From a virus: a DNA stretch of 62,411 bases. Shown in pieces: positions 22,661 to 44,759 of the stretch. Below the pieces are notes generated by a model. The model worked only from the letters and a program-made list of their open reading frames with translations, did no database searches and had not been told where the DNA came from. Location: IMG/VR virus record IMGVR_UViG_3300024239_000003, positions 1-62,411 of that record; one strand, 5' to 3'. Within the stretch, counting starts at the first letter, position 1. Every line of letters begins with the position of its first letter. Made by a program: the position numbers and the translations under genes.

Positions 22661-25600
22661 GTGGCAAAAGCACCGCTGTCGCCGCTCGAAAAGGTATTGT
22701 CGGAAGCCCCGTCCCAAGGTCTGCCGGACTTCCAATTCAACGCTACGGAGCGGCAGCCATCGGCTTCCAGCTCCGCCGCGCCGACCGAACTGATGCCGAT
22801 GTTCGAGCAGTCGGCGGTCAAGTACAACGTCCCGGTCAACGTCCTGCTCGCGCTCGGCGATCAGGAGTCGAGATTCAACCCGCGCGCGCTCGGCCAGCCT
22901 ACCAAGTGGGGCCGCGCCAAGGGGCTGATGCAGTATCTCGACAGCACCGCCGCGAACCTGGGGATCAACCCCTACGACCCGGCTCAGTCCATCGACGCCG
23001 CCGCGCGCCAGATACGCGAGCGTCTGGACAAGGGTTACTCCATGGAGGACGCGGTCAAGGAGCACTTCGCCGGCCCGGATCGCCGCCAGTGGGGGCCGAA
23101 GACCGCCCGCTACGGCGAGGAGGTCATGGAGAAGGTCGCAAAGTGGGGCGGCCAGTTCCAGCCGACCGGCGCCGCCGTTGCGTCCGGTGCGCCGGATCGC
23201 GCGGGCGCAGTTGCCGAACTCCAGAAGCAGCTCGATGCCGAGGAAGAAGGTCGGTACACGGCGCTTACGCCGGATCAGGTCGAGCGTTACCAGCGCCGCG
23301 CGGCTATGATGCAGGGCGATGCGCTCGCCGCCACCCAACCGTTTGTTCAGGTCAGCGCGCCGTCGCCGCTCACCATCGAGAACCAGCAGCGCCAGCAGCA
23401 ACAGCAGGCCGAGGCTCAGCCGTCGCCGCTCACCCTGGAGAACCAGAACCGTCTGGCCGCCGGCCTGCCGCCGAAGGACACCCGCGAGTATCAGGGTTTC
23501 CTCGAAGCCACGGGAGCATCGCTGGAAAACGTGCCCGAGCGCTTCCAGCAGTCGATTGCCGGCCTGATCCAGATGGCAGGCGAGGACCTGGGCCTGGAGC
23601 GCGAGCGCTTCATCGCTGACCGCGCGCGCCAGTACGGCATCACCCCCGGCGACATGAAGCTGCTGGCCTGGGCCGGCAACGAGAAGCTGATCGATCCGAA
23701 GACGCCGATCCCCGAGGCGCTGAAGACCGTCAAGCAGAACATCGCCCAGTCGCTCAACGAGCAGCAATTGAGGCAGCTCGACGCCGCCGGCATCATCAAC
23801 CCGAAGGAGATTTCGGCCTTCGCGCGTGACTGGCGCGAGCAGACAAAGAAGACCATGGTCGAGGTCCGCCCCGAGCCGGAGAGCATGGCCTACTACGGCA
23901 GCGCCGCCATTGGCTCGCTGGCCGAGATGGCGCCGATGCTGGCTGCTGCCGTCGTCACCCGTAATCCGCGCATCGCAACCGCCATCATGGGCGGTCAGGT
24001 GGGTGGTCAGGCCTACGCCACCGGCCGAGAGAGCGGCCTGAGCGAGGAGCAGGCGCAGACCTATGCCCTGCTGACTGCCGCCGCCGAGGCCGCGCCCGAG
24101 GCGCTTGTTCTCGGACGCCTGCTCAAGCCCGGCGCCGGCATCATGAAAAAGGCGCTCGAAGGCACCGTCTTGGAGGGCGCTCAGGAGGCGGTGACTGCCG
24201 CGCTCCAGGCTGGCATCGACAAGGGCTACATCAGCCCCGACATGACCTTGAAGGAAGCGCTGGTACAGGTGCGCGACAGCGCCATCATCGGTGCCATGAC
24301 CGGCGGCGCCTTGGGTGGCACGTTCGCCGGCGCCGAAAAGCTGACCAGCCGCAAGCCGGCGGAGCAGCGCGAGCGCATCGAGCCTACCGTCAGCGAGGAC
24401 GGCGCCACCCCGTCCGCCCAGCCGGCAGCGACCACTCCGGCCGCCCAGGCTGAAACGACCCCGGCCGCCGAGGCGCCGCAGGAAATCCAGGCCGCTCCGC
24501 CCGCGCCGCAGCCGGAGCCCCAGCCTGCACCGCAACCCGCTCCCCAGCCAGCACCGCAGCCGGAGCCGTCCGGCCAGCTCGGTCGCGCGCTCCAGAACGC
24601 CATGCCCGGCCGCGCCGAGGAGAGTGCCGCCGATGGTCAGCGCGTTGCCCTGATCGCCGAGGGCCTGGAGCCGATCACCGGCGCCGTGGTCTCCGAATCC
24701 CCGGACAGCCTGATGGTGCGCGGCGATGACGGCCAGAGCTACGAAATCACCCGCGACGAGATCGCCTCCGGCGCCGTCTCTGTGATGCCCGAGGAGCAGC
24801 TTGCCGCCCAGCAGGCCGCCGCGCCCGCTCAGGAACAGCAGGCCGCCCAGCCGGTCGAGGAGCCGGCTCCGGCGGAGCAGCAGGCCGAGCAGCAGGTCGA
24901 GCAACCGCAGTTGTTCGCCGAAACAGAACAGGCGGCTCCTATGTCCGAGCCCGCTCCCGAGGAGCGCAAGCCCGCGCGCACCTACGAGGAGATGGACGAG
25001 CCCGAGCTGCGCGAGCGCTTGAAGTACCTCGCCGGTCAGGCGCGCAACTCCGGCGGCTGGAACAAGACGCTCATGCAGGAGCGCCGGAAGATCGAGAAGG
25101 CCATCGAGGCGAAGAAGGCCGAGGCCGCCCCGGTCGAGCAGCCGGCCGTCGAGCCTGCGCCCGCCGTCGAACAGCCGACCGCCGAGCAGCCGGCCGCCGA
25201 GCAGGCGCCCGTCAAATGGTTCGGCAGTCGCGAGAAGGCCGATGCCTTCATCACCAAGAAGAAGCTGTCCGACAGCCACGAGGTTGTCGAAGCCGGCCGC
25301 TCGCGCTTCGAAATCCGCGAGAAGGCGCCCAAGGACGGTTGGGAAGACGTGCCCGGCTTCACCGACCGCAGCCGAAAGGAGGTCATGGACGCCGTCGTAG
25401 ACATGCGGAAGTTCAATCCAGGCATGGAGTTCCGCACCAAGGCAGTCGATGGAAAGCTGATCATCCAGAAGCGCAAGGCGCCTGCCGAGCAAGAGCAGGC
25501 CGCCCCGGCGCCTGCCGCGCAGCAGGAGCAGCCAAAGACCTCCGGCCACATCAACCGCGCCCGCAAGCTGATCGGCGCCGAGGTCGGCGATACCATCGTT

Positions 25601-28600
25601 CCGTCCGCCGATGTCGGCTATGCCTCCGGCGGAAAGCCCTACGTCATCGAGCGCATCGAGAAGAACGGCGAGGTCGTCGTCCGCAATGCGGAAACGAACT
25701 CCCGGACCAACCTGAGCCGGGCCGAGCTGGAGCGCGCCCGCCGCGCCGGAGTTACCTACGCCAAGCAGCAGGCCCTGGAAGAAGCCGGCGGCGACATGCG
25801 CGGCCAGGACATCAACAGCGAGTGGTCCGCGTTCGCGCCGGAGTCCGGCACCCTGAGCGTGCCGCGAGCCGAGATGCCGCAGATCAAGGCCGAGCATCGC
25901 GGCGCCATGGTCAACTTCCTGAACGCGCGCGGCATCGAGCACGAGGAGCAGACCGTCCCGGCCGACAGCCTGAAGCCGACGCAGGCGGAGTTCTCGCCCT
26001 CGAAGGTCGCCCAGGCGAAGGAGTTCACCGGCGGCGACCGCGCCATTCTCGTCTCCAGCGACGGCCATGTGCTGGACGGCCATCACCAGTGGCTCGCCAA
26101 GCGCGACGCCGGCGAGGACGTGCGCATCATCCGCCTGGACGCGCCGATCCGCGACCTGCTGCCGCTCGTGCATGAGTTCCCCAGCTCCACTCAGGCCGAA
26201 GGCGCATCTTCTGCTGCGCCGAGTGTTGCGAAAGCGGAAACTCCATCCGCAAAATCTGAACAGATCAATATCACCGTCGATGATGGCCTGATGCCGCGTG
26301 ATGACATGGCAAGAATCCAGAGCCGCGCCGGTGTTGAGGCATTCGCAATTGGCAGCGATCCAGAAACTGGCGCCGTTAAATTCAAGCGCGGCATGGAGTA
26401 CGGCGACTACAACATCAATCGTCTCGACACGAGCGGCGACTTCTACTCTCGTGAGGCATCCGCTAAGTTCAAGAACGATGGAACCTATCGCGTAGAGTTC
26501 GACGACGGCCGCGACCCGATTTCTGGAACATTCGACAAGGGCAACTACGTCGATAGCATCGTTGAGATATTGAAGCCGATTGCTGATGCTGTTCCGCGTG
26601 TAAACCGCTTCACTGGGAAACCAGTCGCAACCAAAGCACCTACCGCAGCGCCAAGCAAGGCGTCGCCAGCCGTCAGCGAGAACAAGGTCTTCACCGAGGA
26701 CGCCGCCGAGAAGGCCCGCGCCCTGCTGCGCTCGAAGCTGACCCAGCTGAACAGCGGTATTGACCCGGAGATCATGCAGGCCGGAATCACCCTGGCCGGC
26801 TACCATATCGAGAAGGGCGCGCGCACCTTCGCGGCCTATGCAAAGGCCATGGTCGGCGACCTGGGCGATGTCGTTCGCCCCTACCTGAAGTCGTGGTATA
26901 TGGGCGTGAAGTACGACCCGCGCGCCGCCGGCTTCGACGGAATGAGCACGGCGGCCGAGGTCGAAACTTTCGACGTGGACGCCCTGAGCGAGGAGACCCC
27001 GAATGAACCTGAACAGTTGGATCAGCCAAGCCAGGGAGCACTGGAAGGAGCACCTGCCGAACCGGTACAAGGAGCTGCAAGCCAAGAACCAGCTCGGGAA
27101 CGCCCTGCGCGGAGCAGCGGAGCGGACGCACGCCGAGATGAGCGAGCTGGAAGCGGCCGGGATGACGACGCACGAGGCCTGGGAAGCGACGAGGGAGCTG
27201 TACCTGTTCCCGCCGCAGGAGCAAGCCGAGACGGACGAGGCGGCGACCGGAGCGCTGTTCAACGAGGCGATGCAGGTAATCCAGCCCGATCCCGAGGACG
27301 GGGTGGTCGAGAGCCGCGCGGCGTAACACCGTCGCTGGGCGTCGTCGCCGAGCAGCGCCCTGCGAACTACACCATCACCGAGGCCGACGAGATCGGCCAG
27401 GGCGGCGCCAAGACCAAGTACCGGAACAACGTCGCCGCGATCCGGCTGCTGAAGCAGTTGGAGACCGATGGCCGCGCCGCTACCGCCTCGGAGCAGGTGG
27501 TCCTGGCGAAATACGTCGGCTGGGGCGGCATTCCGCAGGCCTTCGAGCGCAGCGACGGCAGCGCCAGCAAGGGCTGGGATAGCGAAGTCGCCGAGCTGAT
27601 GGGCCTGCTGACCGCCGAGGAATACCGCGCCGCCGCATCCTCCTCGAAGAACGCCCACTACACCGCGCCGGAGATCGTGCGCGCGATGTGGGGCGCCGTG
27701 GCCCGCCTGGGCTTCAACGGCGGCCGGGTGCTGGAGCCGTCTGTCGGCGTCGGCAACTTCTTCGGCCTGATGCCGCACGAGCTGCGCAAGGCTGCCGCGC
27801 TGAACGGCGTTGAGCTGGATCGCGTTACCAGCGGAATCGCCACCCAGCTCTACCCCGAGGCGAAGATCGCCCGCATGGGCTATCAGGACTACCTGATCCC
27901 TGACGGTCACTTCGATGTCGCCATCGGCAACCCGCCGTTCGGCCGCGAAAGCCTGTACGACGGGCGCCGCAAGGACCTGAGCGGCTTCAGTATCCACAAC
28001 TATTTCTTCGCCAAGAGCCTGGACGGCCTGCGCCCCGGCGGCGTGCTCGCCATGGTCGTGACCAATCGCATGATGGACGTGCCGGGCGACAAGGCGCGCC
28101 GCTACATGGCCGACCGCGCCGACTTCCTGGGCGCGATCCGCCTGCCGAACGACGCCTTCATGGCGAACGCCGGCACGTCCGTGACCACGGACATCATCTT
28201 CATGCGCCGCCGCGCCGAGGGCGAGCAGCCCGCCGGCGAGAGCTGGATGGAGGTGCGCGACTACACCGACAAGGACGGCAACACCGTCCCGCTGAACGAG
28301 TATTTCCACCGCCACCCGGAAATGATGCTCGGCGACTTCGGCGCCTACGGCTCCATGTACCGCGACGGCGAGCCTGCCCTGGTCGCCCGCGAGGGCCAGG
28401 ACACCCAGGCCGAGCTGACGCGCGCCATCGGCCGCCTGCCCGAGGGCGTCATGACCCAGTCGGCGCCGGTGAAGCCGGAGACCGCCGAGACCGTGCGCGC
28501 CGAGAACGTGCGCGTCGGCTCCATGTTCCTCGACGGCGACACCGTGAAGGTGCGCGGCGACGACGTGCTGGGCGAGAACACCGCCGAGGCTGTGACCTTC

Positions 28601-31600
28601 CCGAACGAGAAGGCCCGCGAGCGCGTCGTCGGCATGATCGGTATCCGCGACGTGCTGGCCCGCCTGCGCGGCCTGCAACTGGACCCGAGCGCCACCGACA
28701 AGCGGATCGAGGTCGCCCGCAAGGAGCTGAACGCAGCCTATGATGCCTTCGTCAAGGCGAACGGCCCGATCAACCTCGATGCCAACAAGCGCCTGTTCCG
28801 CGACGATCCGACGTGGCCGCAGCTCTCCGCCCTGGAGGACAACTTCGACAAGGGGCTGTCCGCCGCCATGGCGAAGAAGACCGGCGAGGAGCCGCGCAAG
28901 CCGAGCGCGCAGAAGGCCGCGATCTTCAGCAAGCGCACCCAGCAGCCGTATCAGGCGCCGACCAGCGCCGCGTCGGCGAAGGACGCCCTGGTCGCCAGTC
29001 TCGCCGAGACCGGCCGCGTAGACCTCGACCTGATGAGCGAGCTGTACGGCAAATCGCCCGACACCATCGTCAAGGAGCTGGGCGACCTCGTCTTCCGCGA
29101 CCCGGTGAAGGGCTACGTCACCCGCGACGAGTACCTGAGCGGTAACGTGAAGGCGAAGCTGGCCCAGGCCCGCGAGGCGGCCAAGAGCGATCCGGCATTC
29201 GCCGCGAACGTCGATGCCCTGGAGGCTGTGCAGCCTGCCGACATCGAGGCCGTGGACATCAACGTCAAGCCCGGCGCGCCGTGGGTTCCGCAGGAGACCA
29301 TGGCCGAGTTCGCCAACCACATCGCCGAGGGCAGCCGTGCCCGCGCGATCTACAACCCGGCGACCGCGAAGTGGTCGTTCCTGAACGTCGATGCCACCAC
29401 CGCAGCCGACCAGCGCTTCGCCACCGGCCGCGTCACCCTGACCGGCATCCTCGAAGCCGCGGCGAACCAGAAGACCCTACAGGTCTACGACTCGCACCCG
29501 GACGGCAGCCGCACCTTGAACGAGGGCGAAACCCAGCTCGCTAACGACAAGGTGAACGCGGTCAAGGAGGCTTGGGATCGTTGGGTTTGGGCGGATGATG
29601 CCCGGCGCGAGCGCCTGGGCCGCATCTACAACGACACCTACAACACCAACGTCGCGCGCGACTACGACGGCTCGCACCTGACATTCCCCGGCAAGGTCGG
29701 CGACGACATCATTTCCCTGCGCCCTCACCAGGGGAACGCCGTGTGGCGGATCGTGCAGGCCGATACGACCCTGCTGGATCACGTCGTCGGCGCCGGCAAG
29801 ACCTTCACCATGGTCGCCGGCGCGATGGAGCTGCGCCGCATGGGCCTCGCCAAGAAGCCCATGTTCGTGGTGCCGAACCACCTCGTCAGCCAGTGGGCCG
29901 CCGACTTCACCAAGCTCTACCCAGGCGCCAACGTGCTCGCGGCGAACAAGAAGGACTTCGAGAAGGAGAACCGCAAGCGCCTGTTCGCCCGGATCGCCAC
30001 CGGCGACTGGGACGCGGTGATCGTCGCGCACTCCAGTTTCGGCAAGGTCGAGGTGGAGCCGCACGAGCAGGCCGCATTCATTCAGGAGCAGGTCGATGAC
30101 CTCGACGCCTCTATCGAGCTGATGCGTCTGGTAGACGGCAAGAACAGCCGGAACGTCAAGGAGACGCAGAAGCGCCGCGACGCCTTGCAGGAGAAGCTGA
30201 AGAAGCTGATCGACGCCGACAACAAGGACGACAGCCTGTACTGGGGCGAGCTGGGCGTGGACGCCCTGTTCGTGGACGAGGCGCACGAGTTCAAGAACCT
30301 CGCGTTCTCCACCTCCATGAACCGCGTCGCAGGCCTGGGCGCGCAGACCGGCAGCCAGAAGGCGGCCGACCTGTTCCTGAAGGTCCGGCAGGTACTGAAG
30401 GCTACCGGCGGCCGCAACGTCGTGTTCGCTACCGGCACGCCGATCAGCAACACCATGGCCGAGATGTACACCATGCAGCGGTATCTCGACTATGTGAACC
30501 TGAAGGGCCAGGGCCTGAGCCACTTCGACGCCTGGGCGCGCATGTTCGGCGAGGTCGTGACCGACTGGGAGCTGTCGCCGTCCGGCAAGTACAAGATGAA
30601 CAGCCGGTTCGCCAAGTTCGTGAACATGCCGGAGCTGATGCAGCGCTACGGCTCCTTCGCCGACGTGGTGAACCGTGCGGACATCAACCGCATGCTCGCC
30701 GCCCAGGGCAAGAAGCTGCCGGTGCCGAAGGTGCGCGGCGGCAAGCCGGAGAACGTGGTCGTTCCGCGCAGCCAGGACCAAGCCAACTACATCGGCGAGC
30801 CGATCAAGGACGCGGACGGCAACGACACTGACGACTACCCGCGCGGCACGCTGGTATGGCGCTCCGAGAACCTGCCGAAGAAGGCGGAGAAGGGCTCGGA
30901 CAACATGCTGAAGATCATGGGCGACGCCCGGAAGGCCGCCCTGGATATGCGCCTGATCGACCCGAGCTACCCGGACTACGCCGGCAGCAAGGTCAACGAG
31001 GCCGCCGGCCGCATGAAGGAGCTGTACGACCGCTGGCACGAGGATCGCGGCACGCAACTGGTCTTCATCGACCTGTCCACGCCGAAGAACGCCCGTTCCG
31101 CCGAGGCCGAGCGCCTGCGCGACCTCGCCCGCCGGGCCGATGATGGCGACGAGGACGCGGCCGCCGAGCTGGATAAGGTCAGCCCCGACGAGCTGATGGC
31201 CCTGGACGGCGACTTCTCGGTCTACGACGACCTGAAGCAGAAGCTGATCGCCAAGGGCATCCCTGCCGACGAGATCGCCTTCATCCACGATGCCAAGACC
31301 GACCTCCAGAAGGAGGAGCTTTTCGGCAAGGTCCGCTCCGGCCGCGTGCGCTTCCTGTTCGGCTCCACCGCGAAGATGGGCGCCGGCACCAACGTGCAGG
31401 ACCGGCTGGTCGGCCTGCACCACATGGACGCCCCGTGGCGGCCTTCCGATCTGGAGCAGCGCGAGGGGCGGATCATCCGCCAGGGCAACAAGCTGTACGA
31501 GCGTGATCCCGAGGGCTTCGAGGTGGCGATCTTCCGCTACGCCACGAAGCAGACCCTGGACAGCCGCATGTGGCAGACCATCGAGGGCAAGGCCAACTTC

Positions 31601-34600
31601 ATCGAGCAGGTGCGCAAGGGCGCGTCCGGCACCCGCGAGATCGAGGACGTTGCCGGCGAGGCCGCGAACGCCGCCGAGATGAAGGCGGCCGCCAGCGGCA
31701 ACCCGCTGATCCTCGAAGAGATGAGCCTACGCCAGAAGATCAGGAAGCTCGAAAATGAGCGGATGAACCACGAGCGCGAGCAGTTCCGCCTGCGCGACAG
31801 CGTCCGCTCGGCGAAGCGCAGCATCGAGCGCGCTGACCGCCTGCTAGCCGAGCTGCGCGCCGACGCCAAGCGCGAGCTGCCCAAGGAGTTCGCCCTGACC
31901 ATCAACGGCGTGGAGTTCGACAAGCGCAAGGACGCTGGCGAGGCGATCCTGGCCCAGGCCGCCAAGATGGAGGCGAACGGAACCGAGGAGGCCGAGATCG
32001 GCCGCTACGGCGACTTCACCATTCGCCTGGAGCGCATCACCAAGGAGCGCTACGAGGCGCAGGTCGTGGGCGATGGCACCTATACCGCCGCCTTTGAACT
32101 CGACACCGATCCGCTCGGCCTGTCCATGCGCGTGACCAACACCGTCAAGGACCTGGGCGGAGCCATCGAGCAGGTCGAGCAGCGCAAGGCCCGTGCCCAG
32201 GCCGACATCCCGAAACTGGAGGAGCAGGCCGCCGACTGGTCGAAGCGCGACGAGCTGTCCCAGGCCAAGGGGCGCCACAACGACGTGCTCACCCAGTTGA
32301 AGCCGAAGAAGAAGGAGACGCCGCCGGCGCAGCAGCAGCCGGAGATCAAGGCGTCCATTGCAAAGCAGACGAGCACGCCCGAGTTCAAGCGCTGGTTCGG
32401 CGACAGCAAGGTGGTGGACGAGGACGGCCAGCCGCTGGTGGTCTATCACGGCTCCATCGTCCGCGACAGCCCGCGCACGCCGGGCATGGGCGACATCCAA
32501 GCGTTCGACCGCCTGTACACCACGCGATTCCGCAAGCCCTCCGTGGACACCATGGGGAGCTGGTTCAGCACCAACCCTGGCGAAGGTGGCGCACAGAAGT
32601 ATTCTGGCGCCCGCGAAGGCTCGGTGATCTATCCTGTCTACCTGTCCATCCAGAACCCGCAGGAAACCACGTTCCAGCTCCTGCTGCGCCGCGCCCGCCT
32701 GCTGGCCAATGGCGTCGATGATGGTCGCATGGTCGGTGAAGCGGAGGTTAACGCCTACCGCAAGTGGCTGAAGGAAATGGGCAAGGACGGCATCAAGATC
32801 GTCCATGATGAGTACGCCGAGAACGGTTCCACCGAGTTCAAGGACCAAACCGCGTGGGTTGTACTCGAACCCGAGCAGATCAAGAGCGCCACCGGAAACC
32901 GTGGCACCTTCGATCCGAACAGTGCAGACATTCGTTACTCCATCGCCGATCAGCTCCAGCGTGCGCTGAACGACGGGTCGCGTGTCGATGCCGTGGTGGA
33001 TGGCGAGCGTTTCAGCGTGCAGCCGGACGGCATGTACGAGCTGATCCGCTCCGACGCTATCGACCTGAAGTCTCCGGCGGAGATCGCCAGCCTCCCGGTG
33101 GCGGACGCCCGCGCCCGCGTCTTCGACGCTCTGCTGGCGAAGCGCGGCATCTCTATGCAGCACCAGAAGCTCGGCGCCATCAACTTCAACCGGGCCGGCA
33201 TCACCAAGAGCCGGGCGAACAGCAACGACCCGGCCAAGGTGAAGACCATCCCGCTGCTGGATCGCATCGTGGACGGCGCGCCTTACCTGGGCCGCCGCGA
33301 GGCTGACGGCACCGTCTATCACTACCTGGGCCGCCGCATCCGCGTGGACGGTGAGCCGATCACCACCATGATCACGCTGCGCGAGACCCCGGACGGTCGG
33401 ATCACCTACTACAACCACACCATGCTCAACGACGTTCGCACGATCATGGTGGAGCCGGACGATCCGTCCGTGAATGATCGGTACTACCGCCGCCCGGACC
33501 TGCGCTACGAGCTGATGAGCCTGTCGGCGCCGGCGAGCCCCGAGCGCATCCGTGCCGTGCTCACCGGCGGCCCGCTGGGCGCGCAGTTGCAGAAGCTGAT
33601 GGATGCCGGCCGGCTGGTCGTGCATGCCGACGCCAGCACCGTGCCGGGCGCGAGCGTTCCGGGCATGCAGGCCAAGACCTACGACGACGGAAGCGTCCAC
33701 ATGGTCGCCGCCAACGTCACGCCGCAGAACGCCCTGGCGGTCCTGCTGCACGAGATGTTCCACTCGGGCGCCCGTCCGCTGGTCGGGACGCGCCGCTGGG
33801 CGCAGCTCATGGTCCGCCTGGAGCAACTGTACAAGCAGTTCGAGAAGTCGAACGGTCGCGCGCGCCAGTTCTTCGACGCCGCCCGCAACCGCGTCGAGAC
33901 CGCCAAGCGCTACCTGCCGATGAGCGATGTGCTGGCGGTCGAGGAGTTCGGCGCCTACGCCATCGAGGAGTACGAGAGTGCGCCGGCAGCCGTCCGCCGC
34001 TGGGTGGACGACGTGATCGGCGCCATCAAGGACTTCCTGTTCCGCACCTTCGGCGTGCAGCTCGGGCAGGTCACGCCGGCGCAACTGCGCGCCATGGCCC
34101 TGGCTGCGATCCGCAGCGAGGCCCAGGCGCCGGGCGCCTCCTCGATGGACGGGGAGCGGTACTCCATCGCCAGCCTGCCGGAGAATGCCCCGAACGATAC
34201 CGAGGTGGAAGGCTGGTTCAGCCGGAAGCTGACCGACGCCATGGCCGGGCCGCGCAGCGGCGGCCGGTGGAGCATCCTCTCCCTGGCGCCCATGGACCGG
34301 ATGGTCGAGGAGCTGGCCGGCGGGAACCAACCGGCGCAGGAGTACCTGAACCTGAAGCGCGACATGGACGCCTACCGCTCGAAGAAGCATCAGCAGTTCG
34401 ACACCATCGCCCAGCGTTGGCTGAAGCTGATCGCCTTCGACCGGAAGGGCGCGCAGGAGATGGCCGACATCATGCACGAGGCCACCCTGGCGCAGACCGA
34501 CCCGGCCGAGCCGTTCAAGACCTCGATCACCAAGGCCGACGAGCAGGTGATGCAGTACCGTCCGAACAGCGAGGCCGCCGAGGAGGCCTTCGCCAAGAAG

Positions 34601-37000
34601 GCGGCCGACGAGCGGCGACGCGAGGAGCACAAGGCCCTGGCCGAGCGCTTCCGCAAGCTGTCGCCCGAGTTGCAGGCGCAGTACCGCGAGGTCCGCGACG
34701 CCTACAAGCAGATGACCGAGGAGCTGGACGCCATCCTGATGGCGAACCTCGGGCAGGCCCTGGACATCGCCGGCCGCAAGGCTGAGCGCCAGTACGAGAA
34801 GGACATGCAGGAAATCCGCGACGACGGCCTGACCGGCGACGCGCGGAAGGAGGCCGAGGCCGCCGCGCTGAAGAAGTACAACACCGCCATGTCCAAACAG
34901 CGGTGGAACAAGCGCGCCCGCATGACCGAGCTGCGCCAGCAACTGGAATCGAACCGCGTCGCCGGCCCGTATTTCCCGCTCGCCCGGTTCGGCGACTACT
35001 TCGTCACCGTGCGCGACCGCGACAGCGGCGAGGTCCTGAGCTTCTCGCGCTTCGAGACCCGTGCCGAGCAGCAGCGTTTCGCCAAGCAGGCGGCGCGCCT
35101 GGGCTCTGTGCAGACCGGCCTGCTGAACAACGACGCCGACGTTCGCGGCTCGGTCGATCCGCGCTTTGTCTCGGACGTTGAGGACATCCTGTCCGGCGCC
35201 AGCGTTCCCGATTCCGTCAAGGATCAGGTCTGGCAGCGCTTCCTCGAAAGCATGCCGGACATGAGCATGCGCAAGGGCTTCATCCACCGGAAGGGCCGCT
35301 CCGGCTTCAGCTCCGACGCCCTGCGCGCCTTCGCCTCGCGCATGTTCCACGGCGCGCACCAGCTCGGCCGCCTGAAGTACGGCGCGCAGATGCAGGAGCA
35401 GCTCGACCTCGCCAAGGATGCGGCGCGCGTCAGCGGCAACCCGGAGCGCGACACCGCCGTGGTGAACGAGCTGAACCGCCGGCATGACTACGTCATGAAC
35501 CCGAAAGGCGGGGCGCTCGCCCAGCACATCACGTCCGCCGCGTTCGTCTACCACCTGTCGATGTCGCCGGCGGCCGCGCTGGTGAACCTGTCGCAGACCG
35601 TCGTCCTGGGCGTGCCGATCATGGGCGCCAAGTACGGCGCCGCCCGCACCACTGTGGAGCTGAACCGCGCCCTGGGCAACTTCATCACCGGGCGCGGCCG
35701 CGCCGAGCGCTCCTCCGGCCTGACTGAGGACGAGCGCAAGGCAATGCGGGCGGCCTACGACTCCGGCGTGGTGGACAGCTCGCAGTCGCACAACCTCGCC
35801 GGCGTCGGCGAAACCGGCGTCGAGTACAGCCCGGTACGGAACAAGGTCATGGGCATCATTGCGTGGCAGTTCCATCAGGCCGAACGGCTCAACCGTGAGG
35901 TGACTTTCCTGGCTGCCTACCGGATGGCCCGGAAGGATGGCCTGGACCACGAGCGCGCCGTCGATCAGGCCTCGCGCATGACCTACAAGGTGCATTTCGA
36001 CTACGGCAACACCAACCGCCCGCGCGCTATGCACGGCGACGTGGCGAAGGTCGCCCTGGTCTTCCGCAACTACCAGATCAACATGCTGTGGCGCCTGTTC
36101 CGCGATACCCATCAGGCGCTGCGCGGGGACAAGGAAGGCCGCCGCGAGGCCGTGCGCCAGTTGGCGGGCGTCACCGGCCTGATGGCTCTGAACGCCGGCG
36201 TGCGCGGCGTGTGGCTGTACGGTCTGGCGATGGCCCTGGCCAGCATGTTCTTCGGCGACGACGCGGAGGAGCGCTTCAAGAAGGCGACCGTGGACCTGCT
36301 CGGCCCGACCGCCGCCGGCTTCCTGCTGAACGGCGTGCCCGGCCATGCCCTGGGCATCTCCATCTCCGAGCGCGTCGGTATGCCTGACCTGTGGTTCCGC
36401 TCGCCCGACCGCCAGCTCGAAGGCGAAGACGAGTTCAACTACTGGCAGACCCAGCTCCTCGGCGCCGTTCCCGGCATCGCGCAAAACATGTGGCGCGGCT
36501 GGAATCAGATGCTCGACGGGCACGTCTTCCGTGGCGTCGAGACCATGTCGCCGAAGTTCATCAAAGACATGATGCGGGCTGGCCGGTTCGCCACCGAGGG
36601 AGCGCAGACCCTGCGCGGCGATGCCCTGGTGGACCGCTTCAAGCCGAACGAGATCGTGGCGCAGTTGCTCGGCTTCACCCCGGCGGTGCTCGCGGAGCAG
36701 TACGAGCGCAACTCGGCCCTGAAGAACGCCGAGAAGCGGATCATGGACGAGCGCCGGCGCCTGATGGACCGCTACGCCACGGCCTACAAGCTGAAGGACC
36801 GGGAGGAGATGCAGGCGATCCGCGAGGACGTGAAGGCCTTCAACAAGGAGCACCGGGAGGTCGCCATCACGGCCGAGACCATCACCCGGTCGATCCGGTC
36901 GCGGCAGCGGTACAGCCAGCGCACCGAGGGCGGCGTCGCGCTGAACCCACGACTTGACCGGCGCCTTCGTGATAACCTCGGTGACGCTATCTATCGGTAA
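22661..37000 (+). CDS. Giant polyvalent virion protein (4779 aa): SLT, ParB-like, N6-A MTase, SNF2/DEAH helicase, ART-like, HExxH peptidase, PLxRFG
   Basis: Motifs read in frame: LALGDQESRFNP (E codon at 22865); DSLKPTQ...LDGHHQWLA (25963-26100); VLEPSVGVGNF plus NPPF (27928-27939); GAGKT and DEAH (30275-30286); FKRWFGDSKVVDEDGQPLVVYHGS (32384-); HEMFH (33749-33763); PLARFG (34976-34993). Confidence 0.9.
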   Translation: MAKAPLSPLEKVLSEAPSQGLPDFQFNATERQPSASSSAAPTELMPMFEQSAVKYNVPVNVLLALGDQESRFNPRALGQPTKWGRAKGLMQYLDSTAANLGINPYDPAQSIDAAARQIRERLDKGYSMEDAVKEHFAGPDRRQWGPKTARYGEEVMEKVAKWGGQFQPTGAAVASGAPDRAGAVAELQKQLDAEEEGRYTALTPDQVERYQRRAAMMQGDALAATQPFVQVSAPSPLTIENQQRQQQQQAEAQPSPLTLENQNRLAAGLPPKDTREYQGFLEATGASLENVPERFQQSIAGLIQMAGEDLGLERERFIADRARQYGITPGDMKLLAWAGNEKLIDPKTPIPEALKTVKQNIAQSLNEQQLRQLDAAGIINPKEISAFARDWREQTKKTMVEVRPEPESMAYYGSAAIGSLAEMAPMLAAAVVTRNPRIATAIMGGQVGGQAYATGRESGLSEEQAQTYALLTAAAEAAPEALVLGRLLKPGAGIMKKALEGTVLEGAQEAVTAALQAGIDKGYISPDMTLKEALVQVRDSAIIGAMTGGALGGTFAGAEKLTSRKPAEQRERIEPTVSEDGATPSAQPAATTPAAQAETTPAAEAPQEIQAAPPAPQPEPQPAPQPAPQPAPQPEPSGQLGRALQNAMPGRAEESAADGQRVALIAEGLEPITGAVVSESPDSLMVRGDDGQSYEITRDEIASGAVSVMPEEQLAAQQAAAPAQEQQAAQPVEEPAPAEQQAEQQVEQPQLFAETEQAAPMSEPAPEERKPARTYEEMDEPELRERLKYLAGQARNSGGWNKTLMQERRKIEKAIEAKKAEAAPVEQPAVEPAPAVEQPTAEQPAAEQAPVKWFGSREKADAFITKKKLSDSHEVVEAGRSRFEIREKAPKDGWEDVPGFTDRSRKEVMDAVVDMRKFNPGMEFRTKAVDGKLIIQKRKAPAEQEQAAPAPAAQQEQPKTSGHINRARKLIGAEVGDTIVPSADVGYASGGKPYVIERIEKNGEVVVRNAETNSRTNLSRAELERARRAGVTYAKQQALEEAGGDMRGQDINSEWSAFAPESGTLSVPRAEMPQIKAEHRGAMVNFLNARGIEHEEQTVPADSLKPTQAEFSPSKVAQAKEFTGGDRAILVSSDGHVLDGHHQWLAKRDAGEDVRIIRLDAPIRDLLPLVHEFPSSTQAEGASSAAPSVAKAETPSAKSEQINITVDDGLMPRDDMARIQSRAGVEAFAIGSDPETGAVKFKRGMEYGDYNINRLDTSGDFYSREASAKFKNDGTYRVEFDDGRDPISGTFDKGNYVDSIVEILKPIADAVPRVNRFTGKPVATKAPTAAPSKASPAVSENKVFTEDAAEKARALLRSKLTQLNSGIDPEIMQAGITLAGYHIEKGARTFAAYAKAMVGDLGDVVRPYLKSWYMGVKYDPRAAGFDGMSTAAEVETFDVDALSEETPNEPEQLDQPSQGALEGAPAEPVQGAASQEPARERPARSSGADARRDERAGSGRDDDARGLGSDEGAVPVPAAGASRDGRGGDRSAVQRGDAGNPARSRGRGGREPRGVTPSLGVVAEQRPANYTITEADEIGQGGAKTKYRNNVAAIRLLKQLETDGRAATASEQVVLAKYVGWGGIPQAFERSDGSASKGWDSEVAELMGLLTAEEYRAAASSSKNAHYTAPEIVRAMWGAVARLGFNGGRVLEPSVGVGNFFGLMPHELRKAAALNGVELDRVTSGIATQLYPEAKIARMGYQDYLIPDGHFDVAIGNPPFGRESLYDGRRKDLSGFSIHNYFFAKSLDGLRPGGVLAMVVTNRMMDVPGDKARRYMADRADFLGAIRLPNDAFMANAGTSVTTDIIFMRRRAEGEQPAGESWMEVRDYTDKDGNTVPLNEYFHRHPEMMLGDFGAYGSMYRDGEPALVAREGQDTQAELTRAIGRLPEGVMTQSAPVKPETAETVRAENVRVGSMFLDGDTVKVRGDDVLGENTAEAVTFPNEKARERVVGMIGIRDVLARLRGLQLDPSATDKRIEVARKELNAAYDAFVKANGPINLDANKRLFRDDPTWPQLSALEDNFDKGLSAAMAKKTGEEPRKPSAQKAAIFSKRTQQPYQAPTSAASAKDALVASLAETGRVDLDLMSELYGKSPDTIVKELGDLVFRDPVKGYVTRDEYLSGNVKAKLAQAREAAKSDPAFAANVDALEAVQPADIEAVDINVKPGAPWVPQETMAEFANHIAEGSRARAIYNPATAKWSFLNVDATTAADQRFATGRVTLTGILEAAANQKTLQVYDSHPDGSRTLNEGETQLANDKVNAVKEAWDRWVWADDARRERLGRIYNDTYNTNVARDYDGSHLTFPGKVGDDIISLRPHQGNAVWRIVQADTTLLDHVVGAGKTFTMVAGAMELRRMGLAKKPMFVVPNHLVSQWAADFTKLYPGANVLAANKKDFEKENRKRLFARIATGDWDAVIVAHSSFGKVEVEPHEQAAFIQEQVDDLDASIELMRLVDGKNSRNVKETQKRRDALQEKLKKLIDADNKDDSLYWGELGVDALFVDEAHEFKNLAFSTSMNRVAGLGAQTGSQKAADLFLKVRQVLKATGGRNVVFATGTPISNTMAEMYTMQRYLDYVNLKGQGLSHFDAWARMFGEVVTDWELSPSGKYKMNSRFAKFVNMPELMQRYGSFADVVNRADINRMLAAQGKKLPVPKVRGGKPENVVVPRSQDQANYIGEPIKDADGNDTDDYPRGTLVWRSENLPKKAEKGSDNMLKIMGDARKAALDMRLIDPSYPDYAGSKVNEAAGRMKELYDRWHEDRGTQLVFIDLSTPKNARSAEAERLRDLARRADDGDEDAAAELDKVSPDELMALDGDFSVYDDLKQKLIAKGIPADEIAFIHDAKTDLQKEELFGKVRSGRVRFLFGSTAKMGAGTNVQDRLVGLHHMDAPWRPSDLEQREGRIIRQGNKLYERDPEGFEVAIFRYATKQTLDSRMWQTIEGKANFIEQVRKGASGTREIEDVAGEAANAAEMKAAASGNPLILEEMSLRQKIRKLENERMNHEREQFRLRDSVRSAKRSIERADRLLAELRADAKRELPKEFALTINGVEFDKRKDAGEAILAQAAKMEANGTEEAEIGRYGDFTIRLERITKERYEAQVVGDGTYTAAFELDTDPLGLSMRVTNTVKDLGGAIEQVEQRKARAQADIPKLEEQAADWSKRDELSQAKGRHNDVLTQLKPKKKETPPAQQQPEIKASIAKQTSTPEFKRWFGDSKVVDEDGQPLVVYHGSIVRDSPRTPGMGDIQAFDRLYTTRFRKPSVDTMGSWFSTNPGEGGAQKYSGAREGSVIYPVYLSIQNPQETTFQLLLRRARLLANGVDDGRMVGEAEVNAYRKWLKEMGKDGIKIVHDEYAENGSTEFKDQTAWVVLEPEQIKSATGNRGTFDPNSADIRYSIADQLQRALNDGSRVDAVVDGERFSVQPDGMYELIRSDAIDLKSPAEIASLPVADARARVFDALLAKRGISMQHQKLGAINFNRAGITKSRANSNDPAKVKTIPLLDRIVDGAPYLGRREADGTVYHYLGRRIRVDGEPITTMITLRETPDGRITYYNHTMLNDVRTIMVEPDDPSVNDRYYRRPDLRYELMSLSAPASPERIRAVLTGGPLGAQLQKLMDAGRLVVHADASTVPGASVPGMQAKTYDDGSVHMVAANVTPQNALAVLLHEMFHSGARPLVGTRRWAQLMVRLEQLYKQFEKSNGRARQFFDAARNRVETAKRYLPMSDVLAVEEFGAYAIEEYESAPAAVRRWVDDVIGAIKDFLFRTFGVQLGQVTPAQLRAMALAAIRSEAQAPGASSMDGERYSIASLPENAPNDTEVEGWFSRKLTDAMAGPRSGGRWSILSLAPMDRMVEELAGGNQPAQEYLNLKRDMDAYRSKKHQQFDTIAQRWLKLIAFDRKGAQEMADIMHEATLAQTDPAEPFKTSITKADEQVMQYRPNSEAAEEAFAKKAADERRREEHKALAERFRKLSPELQAQYREVRDAYKQMTEELDAILMANLGQALDIAGRKAERQYEKDMQEIRDDGLTGDARKEAEAAALKKYNTAMSKQRWNKRARMTELRQQLESNRVAGPYFPLARFGDYFVTVRDRDSGEVLSFSRFETRAEQQRFAKQAARLGSVQTGLLNNDADVRGSVDPRFVSDVEDILSGASVPDSVKDQVWQRFLESMPDMSMRKGFIHRKGRSGFSSDALRAFASRMFHGAHQLGRLKYGAQMQEQLDLAKDAARVSGNPERDTAVVNELNRRHDYVMNPKGGALAQHITSAAFVYHLSMSPAAALVNLSQTVVLGVPIMGAKYGAARTTVELNRALGNFITGRGRAERSSGLTEDERKAMRAAYDSGVVDSSQSHNLAGVGETGVEYSPVRNKVMGIIAWQFHQAERLNREVTFLAAYRMARKDGLDHERAVDQASRMTYKVHFDYGNTNRPRAMHGDVAKVALVFRNYQINMLWRLFRDTHQALRGDKEGRREAVRQLAGVTGLMALNAGVRGVWLYGLAMALASMFFGDDAEERFKKATVDLLGPTAAGFLLNGVPGHALGISISERVGMPDLWFRSPDRQLEGEDEFNYWQTQLLGAVPGIAQNMWRGWNQMLDGHVFRGVETMSPKFIKDMMRAGRFATEGAQTLRGDALVDRFKPNEIVAQLLGFTPAVLAEQYERNSALKNAEKRIMDERRRLMDRYATAYKLKDREEMQAIREDVKAFNKEHREVAITAETITRSIRSRQRYSQRTEGGVALNPRLDRRLRDNLGDAIYR
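27003..27326 (+). CDS. Nested +1-frame ORF (107 aa) inside the giant gene
   Basis: GAGGAG lies 7 nt before ATG 27003, and the ORF ends at TAA 27324-27326. G/C third-position bias follows this frame over exactly this interval. The product MNLNSWISQAREHWKEHLPNRYKELQAK... looks globular. Confidence 0.55.
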   Translation: MNLNSWISQAREHWKEHLPNRYKELQAKNQLGNALRGAAERTHAEMSELEAAGMTTHEAWEATRELYLFPPQEQAETDEAATGALFNEAMQVIQPDPEDGVVESRAA

Positions 37001-41660: not shown

Positions 41661-42164
41661 TCAGGCCCTCCACTCGACGAGCTGGGTGTCGTAACCGAGC
41701 ATGAGCGGGTGCTTGGGATCGCCGCGCTTGGTCAGGCCCAGGTGGCAAATCGGCTTCGCTGGGTGCCGCAGCAGGTGGAGCACGTCGCTCGGGCGGTCGC
41801 GCAGCACCTTCGGGATTTTCCCTCGGTCGCCCCAGCACGGCACCAGCAGATCGGCGTTTCGGATGATGTCGAGCAGGTATCGCGACTCGATGGCGAACAG
41901 CGGGCGGGTCTCGAATGGATCGAGATACGCACGGCGCAGCTCCCGCACGTCGGTCGCGCGGTAGGCGAACAGGTTGCCGACGATGATCCTGCTGTAGCCC
42001 CACCGGCGGGCGAAGCCGACCATCTTGCGGATGGTGGCGTCGTCCTCGGTGGCGTCGGCGGTGGACGGGTTAACGCCGATGAAGGCGACGACCGGCCCGG
42101 CCACGCCGGTCTCGCGCTCCAGGCGGTAGCGGTAGCGGCCGCACTCGCTGATGATGGCGCTCAC
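41661..42164 (-). CDS. DUF1643-family protein
   Basis: The N-terminus ...CGRYRYRLERE...VAFIGVNPSTADATEDDATIRK... matches my recollection of the DUF1643 pattern. Confidence 0.75.
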   Translation of the reverse strand: MSAIISECGRYRYRLERETGVAGPVVAFIGVNPSTADATEDDATIRKMVGFARRWGYSRIIVGNLFAYRATDVRELRRAYLDPFETRPLFAIESRYLLDIIRNADLLVPCWGDRGKIPKVLRDRPSDVLHLLRHPAKPICHLGLTKRGDPKHPLMLGYDTQLVEWRA

Positions 42165-43498
42165 GCCGCACCCCCTTCGCCGGCCGGCAGCGCTTCCTCG
42201 GGCAGCCCAGGGCGCATGCTCGTGTTGGCGCCCAGGATCGCGGCGTGCCAGTTGTTCATCGCGGCCGCCGTGCTGATGCAGTGGTGCAAGGCCTTCTCGG
42301 TGTCGCCGGCGAGCTGCGCCATCATGGCCTTCTGCGCGAGGTAGCCGATCAGCCAGAACCAGTCGGCCGGCTGCTTCCCTTCGTCGTGGTTGCCGCCCCA
42401 GCGCTCGCGCTGGTGCGCCGCCTCCAGCACCGCGCCCTTGGCGAAGTCGTGAAGCTCGGGGCTGTCGATCAGGCCGCGCAGCCGCTCGTTCTCCTTCGCC
42501 TCGTCGCGGTAGCGGTTCTCCCAGTACCGTTCGGACGGATGGACCAAATGCCGGCGCCAGGAGGCATCGAGTGCCGCCATCCGGCGCCCGTGCAGGGCGA
42601 CGGTCATAAGCTGGTCTTCTGTCACCGTGCAGCCACGCTCACGCCAGTGCGCTACCTGCGCGTCGTGCGGGTCCTTGAAGTAGTTGATCGCCTTGTGCGG
42701 CTGACCGTGCTTCGGATGTTCGGCAGTGGCGAGATAGGCCACCACCTCCACCTCGCCGAGGTCTTCCGGCTTCAGCTCCCAGCCCTGGGATGCGGCCGCT
42801 TCGGCAAGGCATTCCGGCGAGTGATCGCCCGTCGTTGTTCCGCAGTTGGTGCCCTGGCAACCAACAGCCTCTTCCGGTTCGGCGAGCTGGCGGATCGCGT
42901 CTCGCCATCCCTCAAGCCCCGACTTCGGCTCTGCCTGCTCGCCCTGCGCTGCGAGACACTTCCCAGCCTCGTCGAAATGGTCGGGACCGACGCCTTTGGC
43001 GAAACATCCGTAGCAGAGGATTCTGTCACCGGGCTTTTCCTCTTCCGGCGCCGGGGAGGGTTGCGCCAGGGCGGCACGGGCTTGCCACGCTTCCCACGCC
43101 CATTGAGTCGGCGGCATGTAGAGGTCTGGTCGCAGGTACTGCCGATCCATCGGTAAATGCGTAGCCCACGCCTCGAACGCCGCGCGCTCATCCCCGCCTG
43201 CCTGCTCTCCCGATGCCGGATGCACCGGGCACGGATGGCGGAGCGATCCGTCGCCGCTCGGGCATGTGCAGCCCGCCGAGCGGTGTTGGGCAATGGCCGC
43301 CGGCAGCATGTCCAGGCACTTCTGCCGGTTGCGCCACGCGGTAGGCTCGTCGCGGTTCTCCACCGTTACACCTGTTGGGAGATGGGTAATGCGCACCGCT
43401 GTTCGGCTGGTGTGGAAAAAGCCGCTGTGCTCGCCAGCGTGGAAGGTGTCGATGCGAATGCTATCGGCCGTGATGACGACCGTTTCGTCGGTTTTCAT
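42161..43498 (-). CDS. Multidomain protein with an N-terminal class-I release-factor (RF-1/GGQ-type) domain that lacks GGQ
   Basis: [52 protein letters not shown] aligns with RF [50 protein letters not shown]. GGQ is replaced (codons 43418-43429). Cys-rich middle region. The C-terminus carries HQRERWG...[13 protein letters not shown]. Confidence 0.8.
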   Translation of the reverse strand: [445 protein letters not shown]

Positions 43499-44376
43499 GC
43501 GGGGATTGCCTCTTGTTGTTCGCCGGGCAGCGGGAGCACGCCATCGGCGGTGGCTTCTTGGATGCGCTCGAACAGCCTGCGCAGTCGTTGGACCTCGGCG
43601 TCTTCGGCAAGGCGCCGGGCGGCCTGCCGGACGGCGTCACACAGCTCGCTCGTCGTGGTTTCCGCTGGCAGGCCAAGCGCTTTGGCCAGATCGCGCAGCT
43701 CGGCGGACAGGTAAGCGCTTTCGGCCTCGATGCGCTCGCGCGCCCACTTCAGCTCGCGGTGTGTTCCGGCGTTGATCTCCTGGCGCTGTTCCTCGGCGTG
43801 CCGGATCGCGTTCTCTACGCCCTCGCGCGATCTCATAGCCTGGGCGATCAGCTCGGCGATCTCGCCGCCGACTTTCTTCCGCAGCATCTGCTGCACCGTC
43901 CAAGAGTTCGGCGCGTGGCGTAGCCTGGGCTCGTCGCGCTGCTTTACGGCGCGCTCGATGCCGTCGATCACCAGCTTCATCCAGGCTTCATGCGGAAGCG
44001 TTTCGATCACCTGCATGGTCGGCCGCTTGACCGTGCGCCATACCTCGTCGTGGCGAACGATCAGACCGCAGCCGGCCGGCACGTCGGCCTTGTTGATCAG
44101 CCCGGCGGGCACCGCGAAGATCACGCCGCTGGAGAACTTCAGGTAGCCCTGCCACTTTCCGGAGGTGACATCGCTTCGGAAGTCGCTGACGCTGACCTTC
44201 ACCTCGTAGGTCACGGGCGCGAAGGTCGAGTAGCGCTTCTTCAGCAGGTACACGTCCGGGCGGATGGAGCCCGAAGGCCCCATCTGCATGTTCTCCCAAA
44301 CGATGTGCTCGGGATTCACCCGGAGGCTCTGTGCGAGGTCGTGGGCCAGCTCGTCATGACCCCACGCCCGGCTCAC
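43495..44376 (-). CDS. PD-(D/E)xK nuclease-like protein (MmcB-like)
   Basis: ...IRPDVYLLKK...VTYEVKVSVSDFRSD... gives a D...E-x-K arrangement. The C-terminal half is coiled coil. Confidence 0.65.
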   Translation of the reverse strand: MSRAWGHDELAHDLAQSLRVNPEHIVWENMQMGPSGSIRPDVYLLKKRYSTFAPVTYEVKVSVSDFRSDVTSGKWQGYLKFSSGVIFAVPAGLINKADVPAGCGLIVRHDEVWRTVKRPTMQVIETLPHEAWMKLVIDGIERAVKQRDEPRLRHAPNSWTVQQMLRKKVGGEIAELIAQAMRSREGVENAIRHAEEQRQEINAGTHRELKWARERIEAESAYLSAELRDLAKALGLPAETTTSELCDAVRQAARRLAEDAEVQRLRRLFERIQEATADGVLPLPGEQQEAIPA

Positions 44377-44759
44377 ACGGCACCGCCTTCGCCGGCCTTG
44401 TCGGCGTGATCGTTCATCGCCCTGACCATGGCGAGGACCTGGGCGTCGTTCAGTTGCTCAGGTTTCAGGTTCCGAAGCGTGTCGCGGGCGTTCTCCAGCC
44501 TGACACGACGCCGGGCCTCCTTCGTCGGCTTTTCCAGGGAGTCGCTGCTGCCCCACCTGGGCGGGCTCTCGTACTGGCGGCCGTCCTTTCGGCGGAAGCG
44601 ACGATTACCTTCGAGCACGATCAGCGTTGGAGTGACACGGGCAACCTTGGCGACGCAATCTCGATTGTGAAAGCCGTAGCCGGATTTCAGGATCACGGCG
44701 TCGCCGGGCTTCAGGCTCTCCAACCACTCGTCGTAGGCTTTCCGCTCCGCGATATTCAT
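44373..44759 (-). CDS. Hypothetical protein (128 aa)
   Basis: ATG 44759 after GGAGGG. Upstream of it the tracked ORF reads as off-frame text. Confidence 0.65.
   Translation of the reverse strand: MNIAERKAYDEWLESLKPGDAVILKSGYGFHNRDCVAKVARVTPTLIVLEGNRRFRRKDGRQYESPPRWGSSDSLEKPTKEARRRVRLENARDTLRNLKPEQLNDAQVLAMVRAMNDHADKAGEGGAV

Follow-up and report, generated by a model that had tools for sequence, protein, structure and literature searches.

A release factor-like domain that lacks the GGQ motif in a mosaic gene of an Itty13-like Pseudomonas phage

Class-I release-factor (RF) domains are defined by the GGQ motif. To our knowledge, the descendants of such domains that lack GGQ are few and cellular, i.e., MRPS35, plant PrfB3 and, in another fold, Dom34. 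The glycines and the glutamine of GGQ position the catalytic backbone and the water, as summarized for RF biochemistry in PMC6742477. The proteins ArfB/YaeJ, ICT1 and C12orf65 keep GGQ and need a basic C-terminal tail for ribosome binding (PMC3950681), and PrfB3 indicates that complete neofunctionalisation of an RF is possible (PMC5897788). Phages are not mentioned in the most complete survey of RF peptidyl-hydrolase domains (PMC6514570). Here we analyzed a protein of 445 amino acids (aa) encoded on the minus strand of a 62,411-nucleotide stretch of virus DNA (positions 1 to 62,411 of IMG/VR record IMGVR_UViG_3300024239_000003; hereafter, the window, always at its full length). We conclude with high confidence that residues 6-72 of this protein, the "mini-RF" core or module A, derive from domain 3 of class-I RFs, closest to that of RF1, in a form that is specific to phages and catalytically disabled.

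The Pfam RF-1 profile (PF00472) matched residues 6-72 with E = 7.9e-9 and 35.9 bits, above the gathering cut-off of 35 bits, and a near-identical allele (P0159) reached 40.9 bits. In a phmmer search of the PDB, chains of E. coli RF1 were at the top (E = 2.3e-8, residues 10-70), with an identity of 38-42% over approximately 70 residues. The NCBIfam models ranked prfA (5e-12) before prfB (3e-10) and prfH (4e-5), and the PHROGs family phrog_20323, labelled "RF-1 domain", was matched with E = 2.8e-13 over profile positions 1-67 of 73. An AlphaFold2 (AF2) model of residues 1-100 had a core predicted confidence (pLDDT) of 85-87, with strands at 14-20, 33-39 and 45-48 and a helix at 54-74; the confidence was low for the loop in place of GGQ (approximately 59) and for the Cys-rich linker that follows the domain (below 50). 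Foldseek superposed this model on domain 3 of ribosome-bound RF1/RF2 (probability 1.0, rmsd 2.3-3.1 A, approximately 71 residues), a result that has to be taken as confirmatory and not as independent, since the alignment supplied to AF2 consisted mostly of true RFs and biased the model toward the RF fold. Of helix alpha7, module A has kept the first half, together with all three strands; its six-residue turn THLPTG is of the RF1/RF2 type and not of the ArfB/ICT1 type with the alpha-i insertion (the two are distinguished in PMC3950681). The domain is an autonomous unit of approximately 65 aa, and stand-alone proteins of 66-79 aa exist. The original prediction, which was made from the sequence alone and claimed homology to the RF catalytic domain in an open reading frame (ORF) at 42161-43498, is upheld by these profile matches and by the superposition.

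The same prediction held that GGQ had given way to HSGF, with one residue fewer, and here the HMMER and MAFFT alignments agree: neither restores a GGQ, which is absent from the protein. The residues H24-S25-G26-F27 are encoded by the codons at 43418-43429, and the two flanking strands are separated by 15 residues, compared to 16 in RFs, the position of the gap being ambiguous. Among the 269 related RF-domain matches that we gathered, 246 have GGQ at this position. With neither the di-glycine nor the glutamine left, we infer that the domain cannot carry out canonical peptidyl-tRNA hydrolysis. The protein does not belong to any of the established RF classes: (i) it is not a functional RF1 or RF2, as a Pfam scan of all 445 aa gave no match to the PCRF/codon-recognition domain (PF03462) at E <= 10 and the scores of the full-length equivalogs are far below their cut-offs (TIGR00019, 45 bits versus 423; TIGR00020, 40 versus 370); (ii) it is not a member of the ArfB/YaeJ-ICT1 class, having neither GGQ nor a basic tail and carrying the turn of the RF1/RF2 type; (iii) it is not PrfH (RF-H), for which TIGR03072 gave 23 bits versus a cut-off of 167, and RtcB was not found in the neighbourhood of the gene.

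An exhaustive phmmer search with residues 1-75 against 1.84 billion representatives yielded 1,196 matches, of which only 12 had E-values below 1e-10, with a sharp break after approximately 10 representatives of 60-99% identity. These close relatives form a clade (P0001, P0002, P0004-P0011 and P0159, the last named "peptide chain release factor-like protein" by NCBI), hereafter the EHSGF clade, in which the pattern (H/Y)A(G/D)EHSGF(L/F)HT is present in every member and E23, H24, S25 and H29 are invariant. Loop conservation among these proteins reaches the level of the strands (entropy 0.33, 62% of positions invariant), compared to 0.70 and 27% for the helix. For the four members with available DNA, Nei-Gojobori dN/dS was 0.07-0.15 with pS of 0.41-0.73, i.e., synonymous sites are near saturation; for the loop alone, pN was 0.03-0.14 versus pS of 0.41-0.68. 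Because the loop is conserved across the clade and dN/dS is this low, the loss of GGQ appears to be a selected state and not decay. A recent capture of a host prfA gene was rejected as an origin, given the identity of approximately 40% to cellular RFs and the near-saturation of synonymous sites in the clade. The EHSGF clade surfaced only through the exhaustive HMMER search: word-indexed searches with the N-terminal 99 aa and with a GGQ-less profile returned only P0001 and P0002 from the clade, plus RF fragments. In a scan of GTDB genomes, genuine RF1/RF2 genes, which share the AVRITHLP pattern, dominated the result, and all 80 loci had an identity of 50% or less.

Loops of the same type are found in other phages (Table 1). 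In a joint alignment, these proteins have the signature small-[G/A/N]-[W/F]-[V/L/I] where RFs have G-G-Q-[H/Y/F]-[V/I], and 12 of the 14 aligned GGQ-less sequences fit a pattern of this kind; S25-G26-F27-F28 of the window protein fits the phage signature as well. The R-x-T-H-x-P-T-G stretch and the N-[K/R] pair with which the helix begins are invariant or nearly so across the alignment. The window protein thus joins the phrog_20323-type group both by its profile match and by its loop signature. Approximately 20 viral cluster representatives with this fold, mostly of 60-135 aa, are present in BFVD. The counterpart of TehO gp01 in Pseudomonas phage 73, ORF037, is known from a tblastn match only. 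On the spread among phages, a question raised along with the original prediction, GGQ-less relatives occur in both Pseudomonas and Acinetobacter phages, the versions of Bxz1-type mycobacteriophages keep the motif as GNGGQ (L096:1426-1836), and the EHSGF clade is rare. There is also a "GGM" variant, GAGGM, in gp006 of Pseudomonas phage phiPsa347 (L097:1195-1590), and P0358 is of the GGM type, too; this variant keeps the di-glycine, has methionine in place of glutamine, and is intermediate between the mycobacteriophage GGQ and the loop-replaced forms. A metagenomic protein, P0018 (129 aa), contains two tandem degenerate RF-like domains without GGQ, both with shortened loops. Downstream of the 405-aa P0012 (contig L086:5327-7448), there are a 263-aa protein and a BCS1-type AAA ATPase; the match of the 263-aa protein to ribosome modulation factor (RMF) is faint, too weak to interpret.

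As to function, we lean, tentatively and at less than even probability, toward module A being a non-hydrolysing ligand of the A site/peptidyl-transferase centre (PTC) of the 50S subunit or of the tRNA acceptor end. Under this mechanism, the GGQ-less domain would still recognize its ancestral partner, i.e., one of these two sites, and would present there a conserved aromatic residue in place of the water-positioning glutamine. The site would then be occupied without release of the peptide, with the result that termination, ribosome rescue or elongation might be modulated or blocked early in infection, and the other modules or oligomerisation would supply the affinity that the isolated GGQ domain is missing. 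The retained RF-like surface includes R-x-T-H-x-P-T-G, the N-[K/R] pair and R56; the latter is the equivalent of RF2 Lys282, which is located in helix alpha7 and faces the acceptor arm of the P-tRNA (PMC6742477). Since this surface, R56 included, is kept, continued recognition of the A site/PTC or of the acceptor end is favoured. Inactive RF-type domains (Dom34, MRPS35 and the baeRF-1 families) have been proposed to be non-catalytic A-site binders, the same logic having been applied by Burroughs and Aravind to the inactive baeRF-1 domains (PMC6514570). In three genera of Twarogvirinae, the mini-RF gene is located inside the phage tRNA array or directly next to it, and the arrays of Berthold and PhT2 contain a tRNA with the amber-reading CUA anticodon (called tRNA-Pyl by ARAGORN). 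This setting, the sole contextual hint of function, suggests a role in translation.

Several observations weigh against a ribosome or tRNA ligand. The GGQ domain of YaeJ/ArfB alone (deletion 101-140) was 0% ribosome-associated (PMC3950681); because of this, A-site docking would require an additional anchor, or else the domain has another target, and the 445-aa protein has no recognizable anchor domain. The stretch that follows the helix is not basic and does not provide an ArfB-like C-terminal tail, and the missing codon-recognition domain counts here as well. The Pfam match is confined to positions 4-72 of the 116-position profile; the switch loop and half of helix alpha7 are absent, and at the start of the helix the window copy is the most divergent member of its clade (DEPTAW versus DERSVH). 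No tRNA genes are found near the Pseudomonas-type members, and the association with arrays is limited to Acinetobacter phages. The EHSGF clade is rare, as all of its clusters are singletons except that of the window protein (four members), and a scan of IMG/VR with the clade profile gave eight stretches with the pattern and zero confirmed cases, i.e., the clade is absent or too rare there. In addition, the closest phage, Itty13, is without the DNA segment that carries module A, and this segment is thus dispensable for phage viability. It should be noted that we infer ribosome or tRNA binding by this domain indirectly, from sequence.

Among the rival explanations, a somewhat unlikely one is that the RF scaffold was kept as a stable fold while the new loop acquired a different RNA, DNA or protein as its target. 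A precedent for such repurposing is PrfB3 of plants, which is a paralogue of RF2 without SPF and GGQ and stabilizes the 3' end of petB mRNA (PMC5897788). The isolated GGQ domain has no ribosome affinity, loops differ among phage lineages, the fusion partners of the domain are many and unrelated, and the Pseudomonas phages place the gene in a recombination/early operon and not in a translation context. However, the positions that are conserved across the phage lineages are those of true RFs (R-x-T-H-x-P-T-G and N-[K/R]), which, for domains 40-48% identical to cellular RFs, is more conservation than a fold normally needs for its upkeep. In the Acinetobacter phages, moreover, the gene location in or beside tRNA arrays points to translation. 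It is improbable that the domain acts as a mimic of RF domain 3 that titrates a normal host partner of RF domain 3, such as the PrmC/HemK methyltransferase, or a toxin or immune sensor active at the A site. The region is hypervariable and accessory, with the presence/absence and module-swap polymorphism that is typical of arms-race loci, the same genome codes for a 4,779-aa polyvalent protein of the anti-restriction type, and domain 3 of RF1 is known in complex with PrmC (PDB 2b3t is among the matches). On the other hand, PADLOC assigned zero families to the 445-aa protein and both of its neighbours, and membership in a defence system was rejected on this ground. We know of no defence system that targets RF domain 3. 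The variant with PrmC as the target was downgraded, because PrmC presumably requires the GGQ glutamine, which is missing here.

Two further possibilities concern activity and the lack of any function. The domain might still be a hydrolase, the Glu-His-Ser...His loop offering an alternative chemistry for cleavage of peptidyl- or aminoacyl-tRNA, on or off the ribosome; we consider this very improbable, although the four residues E23, H24, S25 and H29 are invariant in the clade and relatives are named "peptidyl-tRNA hydrolase" in GenBank. Catalysis in vitro does not strictly depend on the Gln side chain of GGQ, but both glycines, which are required for the backbone geometry, are lost, too, and the loop is one residue shorter. 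Moreover, the sister loops are chemically inert (ASAW, SGSAW, ASNW), leaving no catalytic residues common to the family. Least probable of all, module A could be a functionless passenger, i.e., what is left of a captured prfA that is decaying and that recombination has carried along within the mosaic gene. This would fit the closest phage doing without it at no obvious cost, the Pfam score barely above the threshold and the rarity of the clade, but is at odds with the low dN/dS at near-saturated synonymous sites, the conservation of the loop itself, the intact and translationally coupled reading frame, and the maintenance of stand-alone versions in several phage genera. Module A as a non-hydrolysing ribosome or tRNA ligand thus remains our tentative preference. 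A broader proposal, that GGQ-less mini-RFs are an unrecognized and widespread class of phage ribosome ligands that insert an aromatic residue into the PTC/A site and re-tune termination, rescue or elongation, is in our judgment unlikely, more so than repurposing of the scaffold; if it were true, the window gene would be one cassette-borne deployment of this tool, and the Acinetobacter mini-RFs might act together with the adjacent phage tRNAs, including the CUA-anticodon tRNA, so as to favour read-through over release.

The frame of the ORF (42161..43498, minus strand) is intact, and the exact 445-aa protein is also present in public sequence collections, where its contig measures 62,467 bp. 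Its ATG overlaps the stop codon of the upstream gene (ATGA), and its own stop codon overlaps the GTG of the downstream DUF1643 gene; these overlaps at both ends indicate that the gene is embedded in an operon, and it is translationally coupled to both neighbours. The window, which over this region is 96.6% identical to phage Itty13 (NC_070969), represents an Itty13-like temperate Pseudomonas aeruginosa phage. The gene order is integrase (plus strand), AlpA, two small ORFs, DUF1643 (E = 7e-34), the 445-aa gene, an MmcB-like PD-(D/E)XK gene, a ProQ-C-like gene, a gene for an HTH protein, a PDDEXK exonuclease and ERF. The locus is an accessory stretch between the int/xis and the recombination genes in the early operon; the DUF1643 and nuclease-like neighbours and the location in a recombination operon, as originally described, are thus confirmed, the nuclease match being marginal (Table 1). 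No tRNA or structured-RNA genes were found in the window or in the vicinity of its Pseudomonas-type relatives. Elsewhere in the same genome, at 22661-37000 (plus strand), there is a 4,779-aa ORF for a DarB-like "polyvalent" protein with SLT transglycosylase, Eco57I-type methylase, ResIII/SNF2 helicase, ART-PolyVal ADP-ribosyltransferase, LPD3 and LPD39 domains.

Comparison to Itty13 indicates that module A is carried by a cassette whose insertion point lies directly behind the start codon, the recipient gene being mosaic and hypervariable. In blastn, 43482-43616 and 42102-42859 are 98.5% and 95.4% identical to Itty13, respectively, and the 622 bp between them are unmatched. The Itty13 protein gp75 (240 aa) has the same MK·DET start, its last 237 residues are 93% identical to the window protein, and residues ~7-208 are absent. 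Other alleles differ in a similar manner: P0004 has module C swapped, P0154 (WP_241469113) has a different Cys-rich module in place of the RF-like one, and P0159 keeps modules A-C with an unrelated C-terminal half. Partial homologues of the full-length protein number over 1,387, those with a named source being almost exclusively from P. aeruginosa, and the breakpoints of the homologue alignments cluster at residues 73/77, 95, 151-157, 247-251, 308-314 and 332-335. The commonest junction is the Cys/His linker (module B), with 56 homologue alignments that begin at residue 77 and 17 that begin at residue 73. Pseudomonas phages that are otherwise unrelated (e.g., Turba, Meadow and PA11) share the DNA at 43044-43271 (the linker and module C) at 89-93% identity. 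The linker may serve in two capacities, as a zinc knuckle and as a hot spot at which modules are exchanged by recombination. As a natural example of exon-like shuffling within one phage gene, the locus is clean: five alleles differ from one another in entire modules, and the junction is a conserved Cys-rich linker.

For modules B-E, the PHROGs matches were only to families of unknown function; the Cys-rich middle region that had been noted from the sequence is present. The AF2 model of module F has four helices (pLDDT 83), and this module had no Pfam match at E <= 10, no sequence or profile match in the PDB, and a best Foldseek E-value of 4. Its invariant residues are His, Trp and Lys (HQ-R-W, KA...HH.I..AA..NWH, MRPG), not the E/D pairs of MazG enzymes. 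In the homologue P0270, module F follows a region that is named NTP pyrophosphatase by JGI; Pfam finds nothing in P0270. The association of the C-terminus with NTP-pyrophosphohydrolases, offered with reservation in the original prediction, did not hold, and a MazG/NTP-pyrophosphatase identity was rejected in the absence of any profile or fold match and of the acidic pairs.

Table 1. Features of the window around the 445-aa gene and mini-RFs of other phages. Positions without a prefix are those of the window; L092, L094 and L095 are our handles for other sequences.
Feature	Residues or size	Position	Strand	Description
Module A, mini-RF core without GGQ	residues 6-72	43283..43483	(-)	three beta-strands and a helix
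Replacement loop	residues 21-33	43400..43438	(-)	stands where RFs have the GGQ loop
Module B, Cys/His-rich linker	residues 77-94	43217..43270	(-)	possible zinc knuckle; >100 mosaic homologues compared
Module C, "AAFEAWA..."	residues ~96-155	43034..43213	(-)	phrog_33008, E = 1.7e-9; phrog_343, E = 9e-4
Module D, Cys-rich (CYGC...C; CQGTNC...HSPEC)	residues ~157-250	42749..43030	(-)	breakpoints; part of phrog_3956
Module E, "VEVVAY...LMTVALH"	residues ~251-313	42560..42748	(-)	breakpoints 251, 308-314; phrog_3956
Module F, helical bundle	residues ~332-445	42164..42505	(-)	phrog_25267, E = 1e-30
Cassette	622 bp, codons ~7-213	42860..43481	(-)	modules A-C and most of D; no counterpart in Itty13 gp75
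Upstream neighbour	293 aa	43495-44376	(-)	marginal MmcB-like PD-(D/E)XK, 24.6 bits (cut-off 22), with a long coiled-coil tail
"Phage ProQ C-terminal-like" protein		44373-44759	(-)	next upstream
Septimatrevirus TehO gp01 / P8749	164 aa			loop PGASAWVAS
Pseudomonas phage LPPA15	121 aa			loop SGSAWVPN
Acinetobacter T4-like phage Berthold gp248	78 aa	L092:1486-1722		loop GGARRWVN
Acinetobacter T4-like phage PhT2	78 aa	L094:2001-2237		loop KGASNWIN
Acinetobacter T4-like phage ZZ1	76 aa	L095:1992-2222		loop GKHSNWVN
Metagenomic P0012, P0016, P0099, P0316	66-405 aa			same loop type

Module A is of familiar fold and ancestry; what is undescribed in the literature that we searched is the phage form, which is GGQ-less and cassette-borne and has an aromatic loop. 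There, phage RF proteins without GGQ are found only as mentions in genome annotations, and no paper notes the absent catalytic motif or the conserved replacement loop in phage RF-like proteins. Genome papers repeat release-factor labels for such genes (PMC3483164, PMC10484667), and the existing labels, "RF-1 domain" (PHROGs, GenBank) and "peptide chain release factor-like" (NCBI), come without a note of the missing motif. The Acinetobacter mini-RF genes, for example, are annotated as "RF-1 domain peptide chain release factor" or "peptidyl-tRNA hydrolase" despite the absence of the motif, and in dozens of phage records (67 for Acinetobacter alone) it is missing from genes that go by the name of "peptide chain release factor" or "peptidyl-tRNA hydrolase". 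Because the labelled genes lack the catalytic motif, these annotations are probably misleading. A selected GGQ-less form that recurs in Pseudomonas and Acinetobacter phages would be a new handle on viral manipulation of termination, rescue and tRNA metabolism, and at approximately 65 aa it is small enough for direct experimental study.

With regard to known systems, the variable genes of the lambda exo-xis region (e.g., ea22) are, like the gene analyzed here, mosaic, accessory and hypervariable, and are located between the int/xis and the recombination genes in an early leftward operon; we take this parallel to be one of position only. Domain 3 of RF1/RF2 (PF00472) shares with module A the strand-loop-strand-turn-strand-helix layout and the short HLPTG turn; unlike RF1/RF2, the window protein has no GGQ, domain 1, PCRF/codon-recognition domain or switch loop, and its domain is phage-encoded and fused to unrelated modules. 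In ArfB/YaeJ, ICT1 and C12orf65, as here, the RF peptidyl-hydrolase (RF-PH) domain exists outside the three-domain RF architecture; ArfB class 1 and ICT1 have the alpha-i insertion, whereas the window domain has neither alpha-i nor GGQ nor a basic tail. MRPS35 (bRF-PH), Dom34/Pelota and baeRF-1 (aeRF-1 fold), and plant PrfB3 have lost the catalytic glutamine and kept the scaffold, as is the case here, but they belong to other lineages and architectures, and none of them is phage-encoded. There is also a likeness to the phage proteins of the phrog_20323 type, which have the same core of approximately 65 aa and the same type of GGQ-less loop and which stand alone or carry other C-terminal extensions, those of Acinetobacter phages being located in tRNA arrays. 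Compared to these other phage mini-RFs, the window copy belongs to a separate EHSGF sub-clade and resides inside a six-module mosaic protein.

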